A DNA stretch of 64,000 nucleotides from Bdellovibrionales bacterium (lineage in GTDB: Bacteria; Bdellovibrionota; Bdellovibrionia; Bdellovibrionales; UBA1609): contig CBDHDF010000010.1 in assembly GCA_965261545.1 (NCBI GenBank), positions 576,001 to 640,000 on the forward strand. The letters are read 5' to 3'. Under the pieces are notes generated by a model. It was not told the DNA's origin and did not search any database. It saw only the letters and a program-made list of their open reading frames with translations. The translations under genes and the position numbers were made by a program. This document shows positions 46,415 through 56,879 of this stretch, one piece after another; position 1 is the first letter of the stretch; every line of letters starts with the position of its first letter.

Positions 46415-47530
46415 TCATTGTGATATAAGAACCACATTCCAGAGTTTGTTTTCACTAGAGGCTCCAACACAAAAGATCATATCTCTGCGAGAATGTCCTA
46501 TATTCTGACTGAGATAACACATTGTTTTAAGTAGTGACGTCAAGTTTTTACCTAAAGAAGCTATTTTGAAAAAGCCGTCCTGAGGTTGATTGGGACTATC
46601 AAAAATAATAGGAAAAAAATTTCCAGTTTCTCCACTTTCTAAATCCACAATGGATTGTGCAACCCCATTAGTAAGACCTAGGGTGTTACTCACATTCAAT
46701 TGAATGGGGACAGTCACGCCCTTTCTCTCATCTATAATGGCACCTAGATAAGAACCTTCGAGGTCACGAAGAGTTATCGAGTTGATCGGGCTGGCTAATA
46801 GAACACCTTTTTTATTGTCTTTTACAAGACCTATTCCAGAAGTTGTTAAAAAAGCAGTGGCTTTGTTAGGAAGGGACAGCAAACCATTGGAGCAGGAATT
46901 CATATTTATAGTCTCGTTGGTTCCCGTGATACGATGATCAGACAGTCTGTATTTAAAACGGTGTGTGAAACTCTCTGTGGCAGAAGAATAGTCCATAAGC
47001 CCGTAACTACTAAGGTTTAAAGTGCTTCTTGATTTGGCGGTAGCTGTTGCTCTTGCTAATATCCAATTAAATGTGACCTCAGTCTCCGGACAAGTATCTT
47101 CAGCTATCATAGGAACAAGGACAGCGCCTGATAGGCTCATAAAAAAAAGATCTCCTGGAAGCTCTAAGCCATAGATGACTCTTCCCTCAGGGAGGGCATT
47201 GGGTCCTGAAGATGATGTTACAGTAAAGCCTAGAAACCCCGAACTAAGTTTTTGGTGGGTTCCCTCAGCAGTCAAAGAAGCAGGAGAGTTGGTGTTAGCT
47301 CTCGCCTCAAGAATAAAAGTGTTATTATCTTGAATGTGAATATTATAAATCAGATCTTCTGTCGCTCCTCTGTACTTGCCGCGGAGATTCTCTGGAACAT
47401 TTTCTTCTACACTTTCTTTTGTAAGTTCATTGTCATTTTGGCCACAGCCAATTAATAGAGGGACCATCATTAATGAACTTGCTATCAATGAGCTTGCTAC
47501 ACAAGATTTAAATTTTAGGTATATATTCAT
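46415..47530 (-). CDS. Hypothetical lipoprotein
   Basis: Lipobox LIGC; GGAGG RBS; beta-rich; no family recognised. Confidence 0.75.
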   Translation of the reverse strand: MNIYLKFKSCVASSLIASSLMMVPLLIGCGQNDNELTKESVEENVPENLRGKYRGATEDLIYNIHIQDNNTFILEARANTNSPASLTAEGTHQKLSSGFLGFTVTSSSGPNALPEGRVIYGLELPGDLFFMSLSGAVLVPMIAEDTCPETEVTFNWILARATATAKSRSTLNLSSYGLMDYSSATESFTHRFKYRLSDHRITGTNETINMNSCSNGLLSLPNKATAFLTTSGIGLVKDNKKGVLLASPINSITLRDLEGSYLGAIIDERKGVTVPIQLNVSNTLGLTNGVAQSIVDLESGETGNFFPIIFDSPNQPQDGFFKIASLGKNLTSLLKTMCYLSQNIGHSRRDMIFCVGASSENKLWNVVLISQ

Positions 47531-47647
47531 ATTTGTAATCCTCCGTTTTATTTTCTATTCATTTCATTTCCATTCAAAAGCATATGTTGTAATTTTTGAT
47601 AAAACAAGTCTAGAATTTCTATCAGTGGATTCAACATTCGATTTGTC
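47458..47647. repeat. 190-bp target duplication of IS1634, left copy
   Basis: GAGGGACCATC...TCGATTTGTC identical to 52821-53010. Confidence 0.92.
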
Positions 47648-47826
47648 CCGAGTTTGACAGCAGCATCTGCGTTAAAATGCGAAATTTCCAGAAATTGGGG
47701 TTGTACTGAAATATAATGGTAGCTGCTGGAAAAATTAAAATTGACGCAAAAAAAGTGTAGAAAACAAAATAGGATTTTATCGTTTTAAATATTGATATAT
47801 CATAGAAATATGTAGAAAATATCCTC

Positions 47827-49425
47827 ATGTACATCCAAACGACTAAAAACTCAAAAGGTCAGTGCTACTACCACCTTGTGGAGTCCTACAGAGAAAAAGG
47901 CAAATCCAAAAAACGCATGCTCATGTCCTTAGGTAAGGCTGGAGAAGGAGGAGAGGATAAGATTAATAGTTTGGCGCAGGCCGTATCTCGCCACCGAGAG
48001 CTTCTCACTGTGAGTCAATTGGCTAAGGAGCTTTACATCGAAGAGACTTTCATTTTGGGTCCCTTGCTGATTTTACAAAAGTTGTTTGATCAACTGGGTA
48101 TCAATAAGACCCTCAAAGACATAAAAGATTCTCATGAGAAAGTTCAATTTGATTTATGTAAGGTGATTTTTACCTTAGTTGCCAGCCGATTTATTGCTCC
48201 TAGTTCCAAGTTAAAGGTTTTTGAGTATTGGCAAAAATCTTTTTACCCAGACATGATTAAGGGTGATTTGAGTCTCCAGCATATTTATCGGTCTATGGAC
48301 TTACTTGCCTCCCATAAGGATGAAATAGAGAACTCGCTTTATTGGGTGGGGCGAGATTTATTTAATTTCCAAGTAGACATTGTGTTGTATGATTTAACAA
48401 CCTTACGCTTCGAGAGTACAAGAACAGACTTAGGGAAACTTCGTCAATTTGGCTATAGTAAAGAGAGACGATCAGACTGCACCCAAGTTGTCTTTGGTTT
48501 GTTGGTGAATCGGGATGGCATCCCTTTAGGTTTTGAGGTTTTCCCTGGTAATACTTTTGAAGGCAAGACGCTTTCAGATATTGTTGATAAAATGAGAAAA
48601 AAGTTTAATGTACGCCGTTTCATTTTTGTGGCTGATAGGGGGCTTTTATCAAAGGCTAATACTGACAAACTCAGTGAGGATCAAAGCGAGTTTATTGTTG
48701 GTATGAAGCTTGGATCTTTAAAAAAAGAAAAGAAACAAGAGGTCTATGATTTAAATCGTTTTAGCTGGGTATATGAGAATGAGCTTGCTGTTTACGAAAC
48801 AGACCATGGGGGGCATAGATGTATTGTGACTTGGTCTAGGAAAAGAGCAGAGAGAGATAAAAAATCTAGAGAATCCCTTCTTGAAAAGATCGAAGGAAAA
48901 CTATCTTCTAAAGGTGTTCAGTCTAGTACTTTTGTTTCCAATAAAGGTTATAAGAAATATGTAAAGATGGCTGACGACAAAAATAAAAAACCTGAATTAA
49001 ATGCAGAACAAATAGAATTAGATGAAAAAATTGATGGTTTTTTTGCCGTCCTTACAAATGTCAAAGACTTGACGGCAGATGAGATTATTATCAACTACAA
49101 AGAATTGTGGAAAATTGAAGATGCTTTTGGTGAGTTAAAAGGGACTTTGAAAACACGTCCTGTTTTCCATTGGACAGACCAGAGGATTATTGGACATTTA
49201 ACTCTATGCGTTTTAACTTATCTTTGTGAGGCCCACCTTACAAAATGTTTAAGAGATAAGAAGATGAACCTAAAAAGCCCAGCCATAGGCATTGGTCATG
49301 TTAAAGAGCGACCTTTAACTGTTGTAGAGGCCATGAGGGAACTCAAGGAAGTTAGGGCTATCCCTGTTAAAATTCGTGATCAAGTCATTTGGACCCGCAC
49401 AGATATCACTGGCAATGCCAACTGA
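47827..49425 (+). pseudogene. IS1634 family transposase, C-terminally truncated by IS256 insertion
   Basis: LYDLTT, FGYSKE, VADRG, WKIEDAF; the remaining 21 codons lie at 51258-51316 and 52745-52750. Confidence 0.85.
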
Positions 49426-49496
49426 GCCTGTAAACTATTTTGTGTAACTGCCGAATCATATTAGGATGAACTATCATCCTGAAAGGAGAAGGCAGA

Positions 49497-50699
49497 ATGG
49501 ATATCAAGACAATAGGCAAGGAACTAGCGAAGAACGTCAAGACCCAAAAGGATTTATCCGACATAACGGGTCAACTGATGAAGGTTGTTTTAGAGACAGC
49601 TCTTAATGCGGAAATGGACGATCACCTAGGTTATGAGAGGCATGAGAAGTCTGAGACCCGCAAATCCAACACTCGCAATGGTTACAGTAGAAAGACCATA
49701 AAGGGAGAGAAAGGCGAGGTGGAGCTTCAGGTCCCCCGTGACCGAAGTGCCTCCTTTGAGCCCCAAGTCATTCCCAAAGGCAAGACTCGTCTTGAGGGCT
49801 TTGAAGACAGTATTCTGACCCTCTATGCGAGGGGAATGACGACCAGGGATATTCAAGGAGCTATCAAAGACCTCTACCATGGTGCAGAGATATCCCACTC
49901 AGTGATAGCCAACGTGACGGATGCTGTTATTGATGAAGTTACGGCTTGGCAGAACCGCCCCTTGGATAGCACTTACCCTATCGTATTTTTGGACTGTATC
50001 GTGGTGAAGGTCCATCAAGACAAGAGAGTTATTAATAAGGCGATTTACCTAGCTCTTGGTATTACAGAGGAGGGTCAGAAAGACTTGTTGGGCCTATGGA
50101 TTTCTGAAAATGAGGGTTCAAAGTTTTGGTTGAGTGTTTTGACTGAGCTGCAAAATCGAGGGTTGAAAGACGTATTTATATTTTCTGTAGATGGTCTTAC
50201 AGGTTTTCCTCAAGCCATTTCAGCGGCTTTTCCCAAGTCTAAAGTGCAACTGTGCATTGTCCATATGGTCCGCAATTCCCTTCGCTATGTCCCTTCCAAG
50301 GATATGAAAGCTGTCGCCCAAGACCTCAAGTCCATTTATGGCTCTACGACTCTGACAGAAGCTGAAAAGGCCCTTGAGGAATTTTGTACCAAGTGGTCTT
50401 CAAAGTATCCGAATATTGAAAAGTCTTGGCGTAGGAATTGGGACAATCTCATCACTATTTTCGATTATCCGGATGAAATCAGAAAGATTTTTTATACCAC
50501 AAACGCCATAGAGTCGTTAAATAGCGTGATCCGCAAGGCGATCAGAAATCGTAAGATATTTCCCAGTGATCGGTCGGCTTTAAAAGTTGTATATTTAGCG
50601 ATAAAAATGGCCTCTAAGCGATGGACACGACCATTACACAACTGGAAGCCAGCCATGAACAGGTTTGCCATTGAATACGGTGACCGTTTTGACAACTAA
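49497..50699 (+). CDS. IS256 family transposase
   Basis: RNGY, VPRDR, FLDC, VDGL.G, CIVH..RN, TTNAIESLN. Confidence 0.96.
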   Translation: MDIKTIGKELAKNVKTQKDLSDITGQLMKVVLETALNAEMDDHLGYERHEKSETRKSNTRNGYSRKTIKGEKGEVELQVPRDRSASFEPQVIPKGKTRLEGFEDSILTLYARGMTTRDIQGAIKDLYHGAEISHSVIANVTDAVIDEVTAWQNRPLDSTYPIVFLDCIVVKVHQDKRVINKAIYLALGITEEGQKDLLGLWISENEGSKFWLSVLTELQNRGLKDVFIFSVDGLTGFPQAISAAFPKSKVQLCIVHMVRNSLRYVPSKDMKAVAQDLKSIYGSTTLTEAEKALEEFCTKWSSKYPNIEKSWRRNWDNLITIFDYPDEIRKIFYTTNAIESLNSVIRKAIRNRKIFPSDRSALKVVYLAIKMASKRWTRPLHNWKPAMNRFAIEYGDRFDN

Positions 50700-50723
50700 G
50701 TTTTTTAATAAGGTCCACCACCT

Positions 50724-50757
50724 GCCTTATAAGGGGGCTTAAAAGCCCCTCTAAGGC
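50724..50757. terminator. Hairpin downstream of the IS256 transposase
   Basis: GCCTTA..AGGGGGCTT AA AAGCCCCT..TAAGGC inverted repeat; no U-tract. Confidence 0.4.
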
Positions 50758-50793
50758 GTTGACAGAAGTACTGGAATACCGAGACTATGGTTA

Positions 50794-50986
50794 GGGTAAT
50801 ATAGTATGGGAACCTAAATACATGCCCTCTTGGTGCAGATTTGGGTTTCCATTTTTTTTCATGTTTCATCCCAATGCTGGTATTTCTCGAATATCCCAAG
50901 TTAAAAAAAATAAAAAAAAGGGGGTAATATAGTATGGGAACCTAAACACATGAACCCTTTGATGAGATTGGAATTTCCATTTTTTT
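50794..50986 (+). repeat. Two ~65-bp hairpin units, period 128 bp
   Basis: GGGTAATATAGTATGGGAACCTAAA at 50794 and 50922, each followed by a variable loop, TTTCCAT and a T-run. Confidence 0.8.
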
Positions 50987-51316
50987 GAGAGAGCTATTGC
51001 TGATTTTTTTCCAATCAAGATGATAATTATTTATTTGAGTTCTTTCCAGTTCTGATATGATCCCATTACGGCTCCATCTCCCCATTAAATTATAATGCAT
51101 TGTGACTGACAAAATCGCTTGAAGGAAAAAATGTCAATTATACATTGACGAATAATATGGGGCTGTGCTTTTTACTAGGAGTGGAGCCACATAAGTGGCT
51201 TTAAGATTTAAGAAAAAAATTGCAGTTACACAATTATTTTTACAGTCCCTGCCAACTCCTTATTTAAAGCCGCAGGCGTCCCCATCCCTCCCAGAATCCT
51301 TAATGCCCACAAGTGT

Positions 51317-52733
51317 CAATGCCGTTTCCTTAAGCCACCACACCCCTCTGCCTCTGCGTTAAGCTATTTCTTTTAAAAGAACTCCCAGCCCTTTTGATAG
51401 ACCTTTCATAGCTTCTTTTGAAGTGCCTCCTCTTCTCCATTGAAATCTTCATCAGCAACTTTATCTGCTTCCTAAATTTCTGATAGAGCCCCGCAACAAA
51501 AAGGGGGATGCTATCCATTATGAAATCAAGAATCAGTTTAAAGTTAGGTTTTTTGTAGTCATTTTTTACCAACTGATTCACACTGTCTTCATCCTCATTT
51601 ATGCTCATTTGAATCTTTGTATAATTGAAGAGCCAAAAATAAGAATACAGCTCTTGCAATATTCCATTAAGGCTTGTTGAGTGCCACTGCTCCATTTTCA
51701 TTGTCGATGTAAAATCACGAAATGTCGTTTCTATTTCCCAACGACGAGAGTAAAGAGCAACCATATCCTTCTTGTCCAAGGAGCCATGCGGAAGATTAGT
51801 GGCCAAAACAGAGAACTCCCCAGTCTTTGGGTTTTTATACTTATAGAGATGAATGACCACCCCCTCAATAACCATTTGTGAATACCAACCTGGGCCATTA
51901 AATAAATTTACGATGGGGATAAAAGTAGAGCCTCGCTTACAACGCGCAATAAAGAAGTTACTGGCTTGAGCATGGGCCTTAATAATCTCTGTAGATAAAT
52001 AAAGCCTATCGTAGAGAGTTATGCTATTACTCTCAAAACTACCTATCATTTGAATAGCATTGGCGATTTCGTTGAGAGCGGGAGAATAGCAAAGATTCTT
52101 TGTCACACCCGATAAAACGTCATAAGCATGAGATAGATACATACGTAAGAAATGAGTTTCCATCTCATTTGGGCAAGGGTACCCACAATAACCCTCCTTT
52201 AAAAGATCTTTAGAGCGAGGAAGTGCTAATTGGTCGCCATCTATGGCATAGATATAAAAGCCATGAAACGTTTTTCTCAATGGTTCGTAGTCTGTAATCA
52301 GAGATTCAAAGATATTTTTAAAAAATAGGTAAGAAATACTTTGACGTATCTTGCTGAGACTGCTTTTGACTGGCATGAGAAGCAGGTCACCAAAATGAGT
52401 CCATACCGTCTTAAGAGCGATTTGGTAGCCTTCGTAATTTGTTCCGGAAATAAGATAGATAATAGTAAAAAAGAAAATTTGAGGATTAAATTTTCGATTC
52501 CTTTTTTGTTTTTCTGGATCGACAAGGTGCTCTGGCTTGAAGGAAGAATCAAGTTTTGGTAGAATAAAATGGTCATCTGTGACGCGAACTCGTCATTTGG
52601 GGGCTTTCGAGATCAATATTGGATTGCATGTGACTTACTCCTTGGTTGAGGGTTGGGTGTAAAATAAAACAAGTCTTATTCTTGTCGATTTATCTAATAA
52701 TTTCAAGAGATTTTTCTTAAGGAAACGGCATTG
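51317..52733 (-). mobile_element. IS4-family element
   Basis: 18-bp perfect TIR CAATGCCGTTTCCTTAAG; 11-bp TSD CCCACAAGTGT (51306-51316, 52734-52744). Confidence 0.93.
51330..52629 (-). pseudogene. IS4 family transposase with 5' frameshift
   Basis: AIDGD, LYDRLY, YSRRWEIE. The main frame is open to ~52590 with no standard start codon before 52376; the RBS-preceded ATG at 52629 is one base out of frame. Confidence 0.7.
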
Positions 52734-52820
52734 CCCACAAGTGTGGATAAACAAAATACAACTGTATGCGTTAATCCTTTAATATCATTCGTTTGACGCA
52801 GATGCTGCTGTCAAACTCGG

Positions 52821-53010
52821 GAGGGACCATCATTAATGAACTTGCTATCAATGAGCTTGCTACACAAGATTTAAATTTTAGGTATATATTCATATTTGTA
52901 ATCCTCCGTTTTATTTTCTATTCATTTCATTTCCATTCAAAAGCATATGTTGTAATTTTTGATAAAACAAGTCTAGAATTTCTATCAGTGGATTCAACAT
53001 TCGATTTGTC
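52821..53010. repeat. 190-bp target duplication of IS1634, right copy
   Basis: Identical to 47458-47647. Confidence 0.92.
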
Positions 53011-54112
53011 TGTCATTATTCCCTGCCTAAATGAGGCTCACCACCTACCTAAGTTATGGGATCAACTCCAGGGACAGGAGCATATAAATCTAGAAATTAT
53101 TTTGGCTGACGGAGGATCTAAAGACGACAGTCTTGCCTTGGCCAATAAGAGGGGAATTGCTTTTTGTGTGACTTCGCCGGGGCGAGGTTGTCAGATGAAC
53201 CAAGGGGCCTTATTGGCGAAAGCTCCCTATTTTTTATTTCTTCACGGTGATTCGGAAATAAGGGACCCCTTGCTACTTTCTAGGGCTTTTGAGGACTTTC
53301 AAAAGCGAGACCGTCCTTGCTTGGCAGGTCATTTTGGCTTGAAGTTTATACGCAAGAAAGTGGCCTGTAAAATGGTTTGTAAAGTGGTCTATGACAAGGC
53401 TTATCGCTATATGGAGGAAAAAACCTTTATGAATCGCCCAGGAACAACTCATGGGGATCAAGGGCTGCTGTTGCATCGAGATTTTTTTTTTGAACTTGAG
53501 GGCTTTGATGAAAGCTTAGGTTTTTTGGAGGACCAAGCCATAGCTGAAAAAATTCATCAACAGGGGGAGTGGGTAACTCTTCCAGGAATTCTTTACACGT
53601 CGGCTCGTCGCTTTGAGAGTGAGGGATTTTTTCGTCGCTATACACTCATGGCTCTCATGATGGGGCTTTATCATGGGGAGATGAAGAAATTCTTTGAAGT
53701 GGCCCCTAAAGTCTATCGTCATCAGAGTCAAACCACATATTTGCATATTTACCCTTTTTATTGTGTCATTGGTAAGTTGTGCAAGGAGCTCGGGTGGTGG
53801 AGAACTCTTTGTTTATGGTATCGAGTGGGGAGATATGTTCGAGGTCAATTCTGGCAAGTCTTTTATCTTTTGGATCAATGTTTGAGACCTCTTTACAGAA
53901 AAAAGCATGATCCCAAACAGCCTTATTCTAAAAAGCATTATCCATTGGTGGGGTTTTGTGACAAAATTTTGGCTCCTTTGATGAATCACCGTATGGGAGA
54001 CATCATTTTTACATTGTTGAGTTATTTTTTCTTTGGAGTTATCTTGAAGACTTATTTTTACTTTCAAGACAAAGGAAGTCAGAATGAGAATCGAGAATCT
54101 GTAAGGAAGTAA
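52988..54112 (+). CDS. Glycosyltransferase family 2 (TIGR04283-like)
   Basis: LSVIIPCLNE, ADGGSKD, GRGCQMNQGA, FLHGD, GDQGL, LED, TSARRF; start placed at GTG 52988. Confidence 0.88.
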   Translation: MDSTFDLSVIIPCLNEAHHLPKLWDQLQGQEHINLEIILADGGSKDDSLALANKRGIAFCVTSPGRGCQMNQGALLAKAPYFLFLHGDSEIRDPLLLSRAFEDFQKRDRPCLAGHFGLKFIRKKVACKMVCKVVYDKAYRYMEEKTFMNRPGTTHGDQGLLLHRDFFFELEGFDESLGFLEDQAIAEKIHQQGEWVTLPGILYTSARRFESEGFFRRYTLMALMMGLYHGEMKKFFEVAPKVYRHQSQTTYLHIYPFYCVIGKLCKELGWWRTLCLWYRVGRYVRGQFWQVFYLLDQCLRPLYRKKHDPKQPYSKKHYPLVGFCDKILAPLMNHRMGDIIFTLLSYFFFGVILKTYFYFQDKGSQNENRESVRK

Positions 54113-54126
54113 TGATTTGAAGCAAA

Positions 54127-54154
54127 GGAGGACTCTTCTTGTGAAGAGTCCTCC
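54127..54154. terminator. 12-bp perfect hairpin after the GT2 gene
   Basis: GGAGGACTCTTC TTGT GAAGAGTCCTCC. Confidence 0.55.
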
Positions 54155-54169
54155 CTATGAATGTTTTTT

Positions 54170-54488
54170 TCCTACCGTAACGAAGGGAGATCTGACTACA
54201 ACGGATAGCTTGCCCAGGGTAAGCAGCCAAAAGAGAAGCACTTTTCACTAAGCGTGCTGTGAGCCTCTTGTCTCCTGTTAGACGACAATTAAAATTGGAG
54301 CTAATAAGAGTGCTTTTTCTCGCTGAGTAGTGGTTCAAGGACCGCGGTTTGTGGATCCGATCTGAGGATAAACTCCAACACTGGAAACCAGTGATGGAGG
54401 TATGGGTTCGATAGCATGAGGAGCTGTGTACGGACCCGTATACAGTTCTGTGAGAGGACGGGGCCTCCCCCTCACTCGATCCGAACCC
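54170..54488 (+). ncRNA. ORF-less structured RNA ending in a group II intron DV/DVI-like module
   Basis: GAGCTGTGTACGGACCCGTATACAGTTC-TGTGAGAGGACGG...ACTCGAT (54421-54480) resembles a group II 3' end; several further stems lie upstream; 5' boundary uncertain. Confidence 0.6.
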
Positions 54489-54648
54489 TTAAAAGCTTGA
54501 AAGGAAGTTTCCGAGCCTACAAATGGTGCAAGAGCTTTGCCCGTGCAAGGCCACAACTATTTGTGCATTGGCGAGTAGCCCCTCCGTTGCTGCTGTCAAC
54601 TCGGGAGGAGATTTACTCCTCAAAACGTTTACATTATGTTTAGACACA

Positions 54649-55083
54649 TTATGGTTCAGATATAATTATCGTAGTCGCTGCGGTATCATTATTTTCAACA
54701 TGTTCATGCTTAACATTGAAGGCCATGTTTGTAGCTCCAAGACTGTCTTCCCAACAACGGAAGGTGAAAGAATTCCCCTCCTTGTTCATTTGGATATTAT
54801 CAATCCCCTCGTTGCACGAAGGGGTAAGAGAGGAATCCTCAAGAGTCAACTTGATCTCCTCTAGAGAGATTCTTTCATGGGCTCCTCCCCCACTGGAATT
54901 AAATACCAAAGACGCTCCTAAAAGGGCGTAAAAAAAGAAGGCACTTAGCCTCTTCATGGACTTTATGGCTTTCGTTACTTTTATCATCATGGCTCCTACT
55001 TTAGATAATACGCAGCACATCTGCTCTATGAAAGTCCCCATATGAAGACTTTCGATTATTCTGACTTTAAACTCCAAGAACAT
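54649..55083 (-). CDS. Small hypothetical exported protein
   Basis: Signal-like MKRLSAFFFYALLGASL internally; true start likely downstream of the ORF start. Confidence 0.5.
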   Translation of the reverse strand: MFLEFKVRIIESLHMGTFIEQMCCVLSKVGAMMIKVTKAIKSMKRLSAFFFYALLGASLVFNSSGGGAHERISLEEIKLTLEDSSLTPSCNEGIDNIQMNKEGNSFTFRCWEDSLGATNMAFNVKHEHVENNDTAATTIIISEP

Positions 55084-55896: not shown

Positions 55897-56059
55897 GTGT
55901 TATGTAACCCATGGTACCTAATTCTTAGTGTTGTGTAATTATGTGTTTCACATATTATTTCTATGAATACAAGTTTCTTGAGAGGATTATTTAAGTTATT
56001 TTTAAAAAATCTTCAAAAAACTATTGAAGTTTGCAGCAATCTTAGTTTAGCTGATAAAA

Positions 56060-56425
56060 GTGGCCAATGATAACAAGACCTACCTTCTCAATGAAATGCT
56101 TGGGGCCTACCTAAGAAAAATTTTTTCCGACGCTAAATCAGCCATGGATTGGGCAGAAGAAAAAGATATCAACAGGGCCACGATGCGTGATGTCTTCTAC
56201 AAGAATGGCAATTGTGGACGCAAGGTCTTTGATCAGATTGTGACCCAACTTTTTGATATTAACCCTGAAAAAGTGGCTGCTCTCGTCGATTATGTCAAAA
56301 ATTGTGAGCCCATGGCTGAGTCTCAAAAAATATGGAATTCCATTGAAACCCCTGAACTCACGAAGCAGCGTCTTGCTTTGGTGGCAAAAATGATGGTGGA
56401 AATGGAGAGCAAAGAAGATAAGTAA
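56060..56425 (+). CDS. Putative HTH DNA-binding protein B
   Basis: SAMDWAEEKDINRATMRDVF resembles an XRE-type helix-turn-helix; close paralog of 56493-56879. Confidence 0.6.
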   Translation: MANDNKTYLLNEMLGAYLRKIFSDAKSAMDWAEEKDINRATMRDVFYKNGNCGRKVFDQIVTQLFDINPEKVAALVDYVKNCEPMAESQKIWNSIETPELTKQRLALVAKMMVEMESKEDK

Positions 56426-56492: not shown

Positions 56493-56879
56493 TCATAGTT
56501 CATCCTTGTTTTGGAGGGAGGCTTCAATTTCTAGGGTGGCTTTTGCGACAAGGGCCAAGCGGCGTTTTGCGAGTTCAGGGGTTTCAATGGAATTCCATAT
56601 TTTTTGAGATGGGGGGATGGGTTGGAGATTTTTGACAAACTCAATGAGTAGAATAGCTTTTTCTGGAGTGATATCGAAGAGTTGGGTCACAATCTGATCA
56701 AAGACCTTGCGTCCACAATTGCCATTCTTGTAGAAGACATCACGCATCGTGGCCCTGTTGATACCTTTTTCTTCTGCCCAATCCATGGCTGATTTAACGT
56801 CGGAAAAGACTTTTCTTAGGTAGGCTCCAAGCATTTCATTAAGAAAGTAAGTCTTGTCATCATTGATCATGTTCGTCAT
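56493..56879 (-). CDS. Putative HTH DNA-binding protein B'
   Basis: Near-identical N-terminal 70 aa to B; divergent middle and C-terminus. Confidence 0.6.
   Translation of the reverse strand: MTNMINDDKTYFLNEMLGAYLRKVFSDVKSAMDWAEEKGINRATMRDVFYKNGNCGRKVFDQIVTQLFDITPEKAILLIEFVKNLQPIPPSQKIWNSIETPELAKRRLALVAKATLEIEASLQNKDEL

Follow-up and report, generated by a model that had tools for sequence, protein, structure and literature searches.

The structured stretch at 54127-54488 of the window (the whole 64,000-nt piece of DNA analysed here, G000:C10:576001-640000, from a 4.3-Mb Bdellovibrionales genome) is very probably a catalytically dead relic in a graveyard of mobile elements. Judged by its sequence, 54328-54480 is the 3′ tail of a class C (IIC)-like group II intron that encoded a reverse transcriptase (RT). 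The first-pass annotation had read the stretch as one ORF-less group II intron-like RNA, either a decayed intron or, as a new class, a domesticated RNA that does not splice. Decay is supported by the profile of the intron family and by small deletions in this copy. The single ORF-less RNA gives way to the tail of an RT-encoding intron within a locus made of blocks of separate origin, in which the supposed upstream domains are pieces of IS21 elements and the 3′ flank of a gene.

A BLAST search of 54001-54700 against its own genome splits the locus into these blocks, which are listed below with strand, identity and, in brackets, the evidence.

54052-54200, plus strand: end of a family-2 glycosyltransferase gene, which stops at 54112, together with the flank beyond it (PF00535).
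54127-54154, plus strand: 12-bp hairpin, 15 nt past the glycosyltransferase stop (fold z -6.3).
54169-54181, plus strand: 13 nt that recur, unchanged, as the 3′ terminus of an RT-encoding intron family with 12 copies in the genome, a weak match (blastn-short E 6.2).
54201-54275, no strand given: piece of no assigned origin, with a second copy in contigs of the same sample (X3 record 13).
54276-54298, plus strand: terminal repeat, diverged in sequence, from an IS21-family element of high copy number (genome motif matches).
54294-54329, minus strand: 36-nt istB scrap (YSARKSTL) from a second IS21 family (PF01695).
54331-54414, plus strand: C-terminal codons of a IIC-like intron RT/maturase, WFKDRGLWIRSEDKLQHWKPVMEVWVR and then a stop (C-terminus profile).
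54421-54448, plus strand: domain V (DV), of short IIC-type geometry with an AGC triad (folds, alignments).
54449-54480, plus strand: domain VI (DVI) and 3′ end, with the branch-A position at 54474 and the end at 54480 (alignments).
54481-54587, plus strand: stretch coding for the C-terminus of a class D intron RT, RTLKSL...ARARPQLFVHWRVAPP (E 9.6e-26).
54588-54608, no strand given: terminal repeat of a DDE transposon, one base missing (17-mer with 75 genome occurrences).

A DNA profile built from 27 intact introns of the parent family matches, within 53500-55000, the interval 54296-54480 alone (E 1.9e-25, model positions 1845-2036), and a profile of the first 560 nt of those introns has no match in 53500-55000 at E ≤ 10. 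Domains DI-DIII were not detected at the locus. The annotated absence of a GTGCG 5′ end holds in the wider form that no GTGYG occurs between 53170 and 54420. At the other end, the triad is AGC at 54422-54424 and the DVI-like stretch terminates, as had been described, in ACTCGAT at 54480.

No RT ORF had been visible at first reading, but the C-termini of two are present, one from the maturase of this intron (54331-54414) and one from the RT of another (54482-54587). The first of these, WFKDRGLWIRSEDKLQHWKPVMEVWVR (54331-54411), is the top match in the six-frame genome of a maturase profile made from 38 C-termini (E 5.5e-4; runner-up, 0.56); in 39 loci among the matches listed, the protein ends H/Q-W-x(5-7)-W-x(3-5). 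The identity of both short window peptides is based on comparison with purpose-built profiles and with copies in the genome itself; both are too short for Pfam, which returned nothing, and a PDB search with the 27-amino-acid peptide, likewise too short, gave one match, a cellulase at E 0.18. Because the C-terminus and DNA profiles both match there, maturase codons account for the hairpin at 54373-54399, which does form as proposed, and for GGGTTCG, which lies in W-V-R codons. ATCTGAGGATAAA at 54360 resembles a motif of the family's 5′ consensus and was considered as a DIII remnant; it was rejected, as the 5′ profile is silent there and the bases are in-frame maturase codons.

In the window, a tRNA alone reaches the gathering score in Rfam and no intron family does; 54328-54480 has no RF00029 match at gathering score, and the weak DV-type match is to RF04357, which scores 22 bits where the cut-off is 53 (E 0.17). 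In the host genome RF00029 matches 44 times at E ≤ 1, with 27 of these exceeding the cut-off and none falling at 54127-54488, and RVT_1 matches 30 times. What survives of the parent family in this genome is fragmentary: two 5′ ends (C10:997546 and C10:111604), one piece of the ORF (C11:335539), and the 3′ ends on C2, C4 and C7 and in the window. The 5′ pieces cover model positions 1-116 and 1-58 only. The host genome yielded no full family copy, no DII-DIII from this family and no fifth copy (the model includes the four relics, whose top scores are therefore by construction).

The homologue search proposed with the first reading shows what the parent looked like. Intact members (L041, L147, L176 and others; 225 loci among the matches listed) occur in Planctomycetes, Spirochaetes, Chlamydiae and others. 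These homologues keep the bulge, and most of those with enough upstream DNA follow an ORF, the outcome that the first-pass annotation had named as telling against it. Among the matches listed, 145 loci extend 200 nt or more upstream, and in 128 of them an ORF of at least 60 amino acids ends within 40 nt of DV; an ORF longer than 380 amino acids with a YADD-type motif is present at 52 loci, and 28 are full introns with both ends visible, giving lengths of 2019-2153 nt. When seven homologue loci were scanned, RF02001 and RF00029 each matched 6/7, intact members scoring 48-97 bits (six members) with the former and 48-52 bits (five homologues) with the latter. The 5′ flanks of 20 intact members fold with a median z of -0.66, 5/20 lying below -2. 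Three intact members (L175, L155 and L198) stand directly after or before the end of another intron, an arrangement that fits tandem or nested insertion.

By similarity, taking one member and no tree, the parent RT is nearest to the GsI-IIC RT (E 1.3e-102, 347 bits; LtrA, 122 bits; 6ME0 maturase, 114 bits), and two family members have RVT_1 and GIIM and no endonuclease domain. The family DV is shortened, with 9 bp, a 2-nt bulge and 3 bp, the distal stem being 2 bp shorter; it measures 30 nt at 225/225 loci among the matches listed, a length fixed by the search pattern. The triad is AGC in the window and its sister relics, except for AGT in C4, and is AGC in the homologues by construction of the pattern. 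On RT similarity and short DV we call the family IIC-like, yet we do not file it as class C, given AGC rather than CGC. These introns of about 2.05 kb may represent an under-described variety with an AGC-bearing short DV: we did not find the family described in the literature searched, which misses most subscription papers, and the accessible text of PMC3552965 gave no help in classing it.

The missing bulge is the feature that had set this locus apart, and its description was borne out: 54421-54448 forms a fully paired 12-bp hairpin (fold of 54418-54451, -18.2 kcal/mol, z -4.7). Two bases are absent after 54441, and the AU bulge is thereby drawn into the helix. Over 66 aligned positions the relic on C7 shows no difference from the window, apart from carrying three bases that the window lacks: one ahead of the ORF stop and two within DV. 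With those bases present, DV takes the canonical fold of a 9-bp lower stem, the AU bulge and a 3-bp upper stem. The base lost near the ORF end is present in both the C7 and C2 copies, and the window's maturase frame stops two codons early. In DVI the loop is shortened and 2 nt are absent directly before branch A, a position preceded by CCT or CCC in 118/118 distinct intact DV-DVI sequences and by the window form in 0/118 (among the matches listed). The C2 and C4 relics have deletions different from those of the window, and three relics of other intron families in the genome have deletions of 1-7 nt in or near DV/DVI.

Across 11 aligned sequences, 126/126 filled cells pair in the canonical DV structure, and a C-G to U-A change is common to the window and two sister relics. 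Because of this pairing and the comparison with C7, we take the parent DV to have been normal and under selection, with the window copy losing two bases later; on the alignments, the loss of the bulge is a 2-nt deletion private to that copy. The bulged DV motif has at least 120 matches in one metagenome collection, where a version lacking 1-3 bases at the bulge has none, and 105 in GTDB contigs. Across 390 genomes of the class, a pattern accepting either form finds the window and C7 only, the intact form being absent from the 389 other genomes as well as the bulge-less one; in its own genome the bulge-less DV is single-copy. Viral contigs gave 0 matches to the either-form pattern and 0 to a looser bulge-less pattern, an uninformative result in that the intact form is absent there too. 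In sixty relatives, with no same-genus genome among them, a single weak match in the DV-DVI region stood out (G040, E 7.8e-5). Since the DV triad and AY bulge coordinate the catalytic metals (PMC4424553), we infer that the window DV is inactive.

It is hardly likely at all that the fragment is otherwise ordinary and its deletion an artefact of assembly or sequencing. Small indels are common in assemblies, and one sample alone contains the stretch, but the contigs of that sample match across DV with 0 gaps: X1 record 4 covers 54201-54559 with 0 differences, and X2 record 9 covers the whole stretch with 4 substitutions and 0 gaps. These contigs come from two runs of one sample, which may be the window's own source, and so serve as a check on the assembly rather than on the population. 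Neighbouring long ORFs are uninterrupted, and the DV-DVI of another intron is present in 14 identical copies. Among the sequencing runs listed as containing the stretch none is an RNA run, a result without bearing on its expression.

The second unusual feature, a stem said to enclose DV-DVI across the would-be splice site, is likewise predicted: GGGTTCG (54404-54410) and CGAACCC (54482-54488) are paired in both the minimum free energy and the centroid folds. Its 3′ arm, however, lies in frame within RTLKSLKGSFRAYKWCKSFARARPQLFVHWRVAPP, in a stretch (54481-54587) that has 91% DNA identity, with a 3-nt deletion, to an RT end at C11:345969-346078. The RT in that region carries RVT_1 and GIIM, and 6/7 substitutions of the window fragment relative to the intact ORF fall at third codon positions. 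The fragment ends just short of the stop codon and DV. Its CKSFARARPQLFVHW fits the class D C-terminal motif LX3AX3PXLF[V/A]HW, as given in the accessible part of PMC4615759, with C replacing the first L.

Watson–Crick stems of at least 7 bp across the splice site occur at 4/164 distinct intact junctions among the matches listed, against 1.8% of random genome 20-mers; with G-U pairs allowed, enclosing stems are found at 37/164 of these junctions (again among the matches listed) and in 42% of random 20-mers. GGGTTCG is present within 30 nt upstream of DV in 0/201 homologues among the matches listed, and neither conservation nor covariation of the enclosing stem was found among homologues. The single-trial odds of about 2% for a 7-bp Watson–Crick stem are the main point in favour of the first reading. 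Because an event of about 2% was chosen after the fact and is not conserved, the stem is best read, from the sequences compared, as a chance match between codons in the RT genes of two separate introns.

These results bear most directly on the proposal of a domesticated RNA or cis-element, in which the clamped, bulge-less DV-DVI would have been kept, for example to protect or end a read-through transcript of the glycosyltransferase gene. The element lies on the sense strand about 300 nt downstream of that gene, 54400-54490 folds stably (z -3.9), and the RmInt1 remnant FRE652 has been suggested, as a suggestion only, to persist as a cis-element (PMC5894124, accessible part). We nevertheless consider domestication very improbable: the arms of the stem come from two unrelated RT genes, the loss of the bulge is confined to this copy, the bulge-less form is absent from metagenomes that hold at least 120 intact ones and is single-copy in its own genome, and three further small deletions lie within 200 nt in the pattern seen in other relics. 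For the related idea that the clamped DV-DVI has been retained as a non-catalytic structured RNA, serving as a 3′-end element downstream of the glycosyltransferase gene or as a maturase decoy in a genome rich in introns, we found nothing in support, and its chances appear very slim. The whole of 54120-54500 does fold better than shuffled sequence (z -5.4), as is expected from the several real hairpins there.

Upstream of the tail, the parts first taken for intron domains belong to other blocks. The interval 54052-54200 is duplicated at C10:837042-837185 (about 88%); this second copy of the glycosyltransferase 3′ end and hairpin lies 207 kb away, about 110 nt past an IS21 end. GGGAGATCTG, claimed as part of the intron, sits within 54052-54200, reads differently in the duplicate, and matches neither the 5′ profile of the parent family nor five other intron families of the genome. 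The hairpin at 54127-54154 is real, but the terminator scan does not call it, and its T-run starts several bases past the stem; it may be the glycosyltransferase gene's terminator-like element, and nothing was found linking it to the intron. The 13 nt at 54169-54181 may be a scrap of a third intron or a chance match. For 54201-54275, tblastx and blastn-short gave no assignment; its second copy, in a contig with loose ends, has other flanks, and neither that copy nor those flanks were found in the assembly. The IS21 end motif of 54276-54298 has 137 matches in the genome, 63 + 63 of them to two common ends, with IstB identified by Pfam, and the istB scrap at 54294-54329 has 27 other copies. The stem proposed near 54233/54310 was rejected as an RNA domain: it folds no better than shuffles (z -0.56), and istB codons make up its 3′ arm. 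Against 250 genomes of the order, 54113-54295 gave three matches of 26-27 nt only, at E of about 0.005.

Introns of class IIC insert after terminators (PMC1702495), the hairpin is real and the parent RT is IIC-like, a combination that would fit insertion behind 54127-54154 with the intervening DNA as eroded DI-DIII. We give this reading very little credence, because 54155-54295 is unmatched by the family 5′ profile, by RF02001 and by the five other intron families, 54276-54329 is IS21 DNA, and the 3′ flank is a class D ORF rather than a continuation of the terminator region.

For the preferred reading, a dead relic among mobile elements, we infer the following course of events. An RT-encoding IIC-like intron of roughly 2.05 kb, with a short DV and an AGC triad, would have invaded the genome, and one copy would have come to adjoin a class D intron's RT gene, probably by insertion into it. 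The 5′ ~1.85 kb of the intron would then have been removed by insertions of IS21 and by deletions around them, and another transposon would have severed the class D host downstream, with loss of its DV-DVI; the repeat at 54588-54608 is that of the DDE transposon with ends at 47646-47676 and 52792-52822. Small deletions would then have eroded the remaining tail, taking 1 nt ahead of the ORF stop and 2 nt each from DV and from the neighbourhood of branch A. With the loss in DV the register shifts, such that the AU bulge pairs and a perfect hairpin results. Fragmentation and inactivation by point changes are a described fate of bacterial group II introns (PMC4496777, PMC5894124; accessible parts). 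The clean ACTCGAT end against the class D ORF favours a true insertion, in which case the relic was possibly once nested in the class D intron as a twintron; the 5′ exon of such an insertion was not found, the 5′-end relics at C10:997546 and C10:111604 not being preceded by a class D ORF, and 54480/54481 could instead be a deletion junction.

That the tail is one of two pieces of a trans-splicing intron, or that a 5′ half elsewhere in the genome uses its DV-DVI in trans or as an alternative 3′ splice site, is vanishingly improbable: such variants are known (PMC4424553) and two 5′-end pieces and one ORF piece of the family lie elsewhere in the genome, but the 5′ pieces span model positions 1-116 and 1-58 with no DII-DIII detected, the bulge that binds metal is gone from DV, and the branch site of DVI is damaged.

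Other mobile elements were observed in the window and its genome. The interval 47458-53010 of the window holds a DDE transposon with 31-bp inverted ends (47646-47676 and 52792-52822), flanked by a perfect 190-nt direct repeat, and IS256-family and IS4-like elements are nested inside it. Elements of the IS1634 type have long, variable target duplications. An ORF-less group II intron of 626 nt forms a full tandem pair at G000:C2:405046-406297 and has 16 near-identical 3′ ends in the genome, of which 8/16 are followed by the start of an IS256-family transposase gene like that at 49497-50699 of the window. A second ORF-less intron family, of about 645 nt, is found at C2:910161-910805. At 56052-56406 and 56524-56878 of the window, two paralogous small ORFs (121 and 128 amino acids) face each other as an 82% inverted repeat. 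Introns stand at the ends of introns, and transposon ends lie inside DV-DVI regions, at C11:344900-348328, C4:186056-186125 and C4:188595-188822. From such arrangements, mobile elements appear to have been nested repeatedly in this host genome.

As found, the locus is of little importance, being another dead intron fragment, although it illustrates that a small deletion in DV can yield a perfect hairpin and that unrelated scraps can mimic a designed RNA fold. Were the clamped, bulge-less form under selection in sister strains, it would matter as a case of a group II catalytic core turned non-catalytic in a bacterium.

Among known systems, IIC introns (B.h.I1, GsI-IIC of PDB 6AR1 and the RT of PDB 7UIM) resemble the parent family in RT, short DV and the lack of an endonuclease domain; unlike intact IIC introns, the window copy is the last ~150 nt only, and damaged. 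ORF-less IIC introns and HYERs keep their ribozyme domains and bulge. The window copy shares with them a short DV and the lack of a complete RT ORF in the stretch, but has no detectable DI-DIII and no bulge, and still has ORF codons. The IIC triad is described as CGC (PMC1702495, PMC7923331; accessible parts), whereas the parent family and the window copy have AGC. In the class B introns B.c.I4 and B.th.I6, a 3′ extension or domain VII forms a hairpin conserved in intact introns (PMC3261151, accessible part); structure is predicted past DVI in the window too, but it draws on the ORF of another intron and shows no conserved pairing.

Twintrons, with introns inside the ORFs of other introns, are known from Methanosarcina (PMC4424553, accessible part), and the likeness here is that the window's ACTCGAT end adjoins class D RT coding sequence, although its 5′ junction is lost and nesting would be a reconstruction. 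The RmInt1 remnant FRE652, inactivated RmInt1 copies and the 5′-truncated UHB.F1 are, like the window relic, immobile, disabled remainders among mobile elements (PMC5894124, PMC4496777, PMC7923331; accessible parts). In contrast to FRE652 as presented there, the window relic shows no sign of persistence across genomes, and the two are damaged at opposite ends: FRE652 keeps DI-DIII and has lost its 3′ end, whereas the window retains the ORF end, DV and DVI only.
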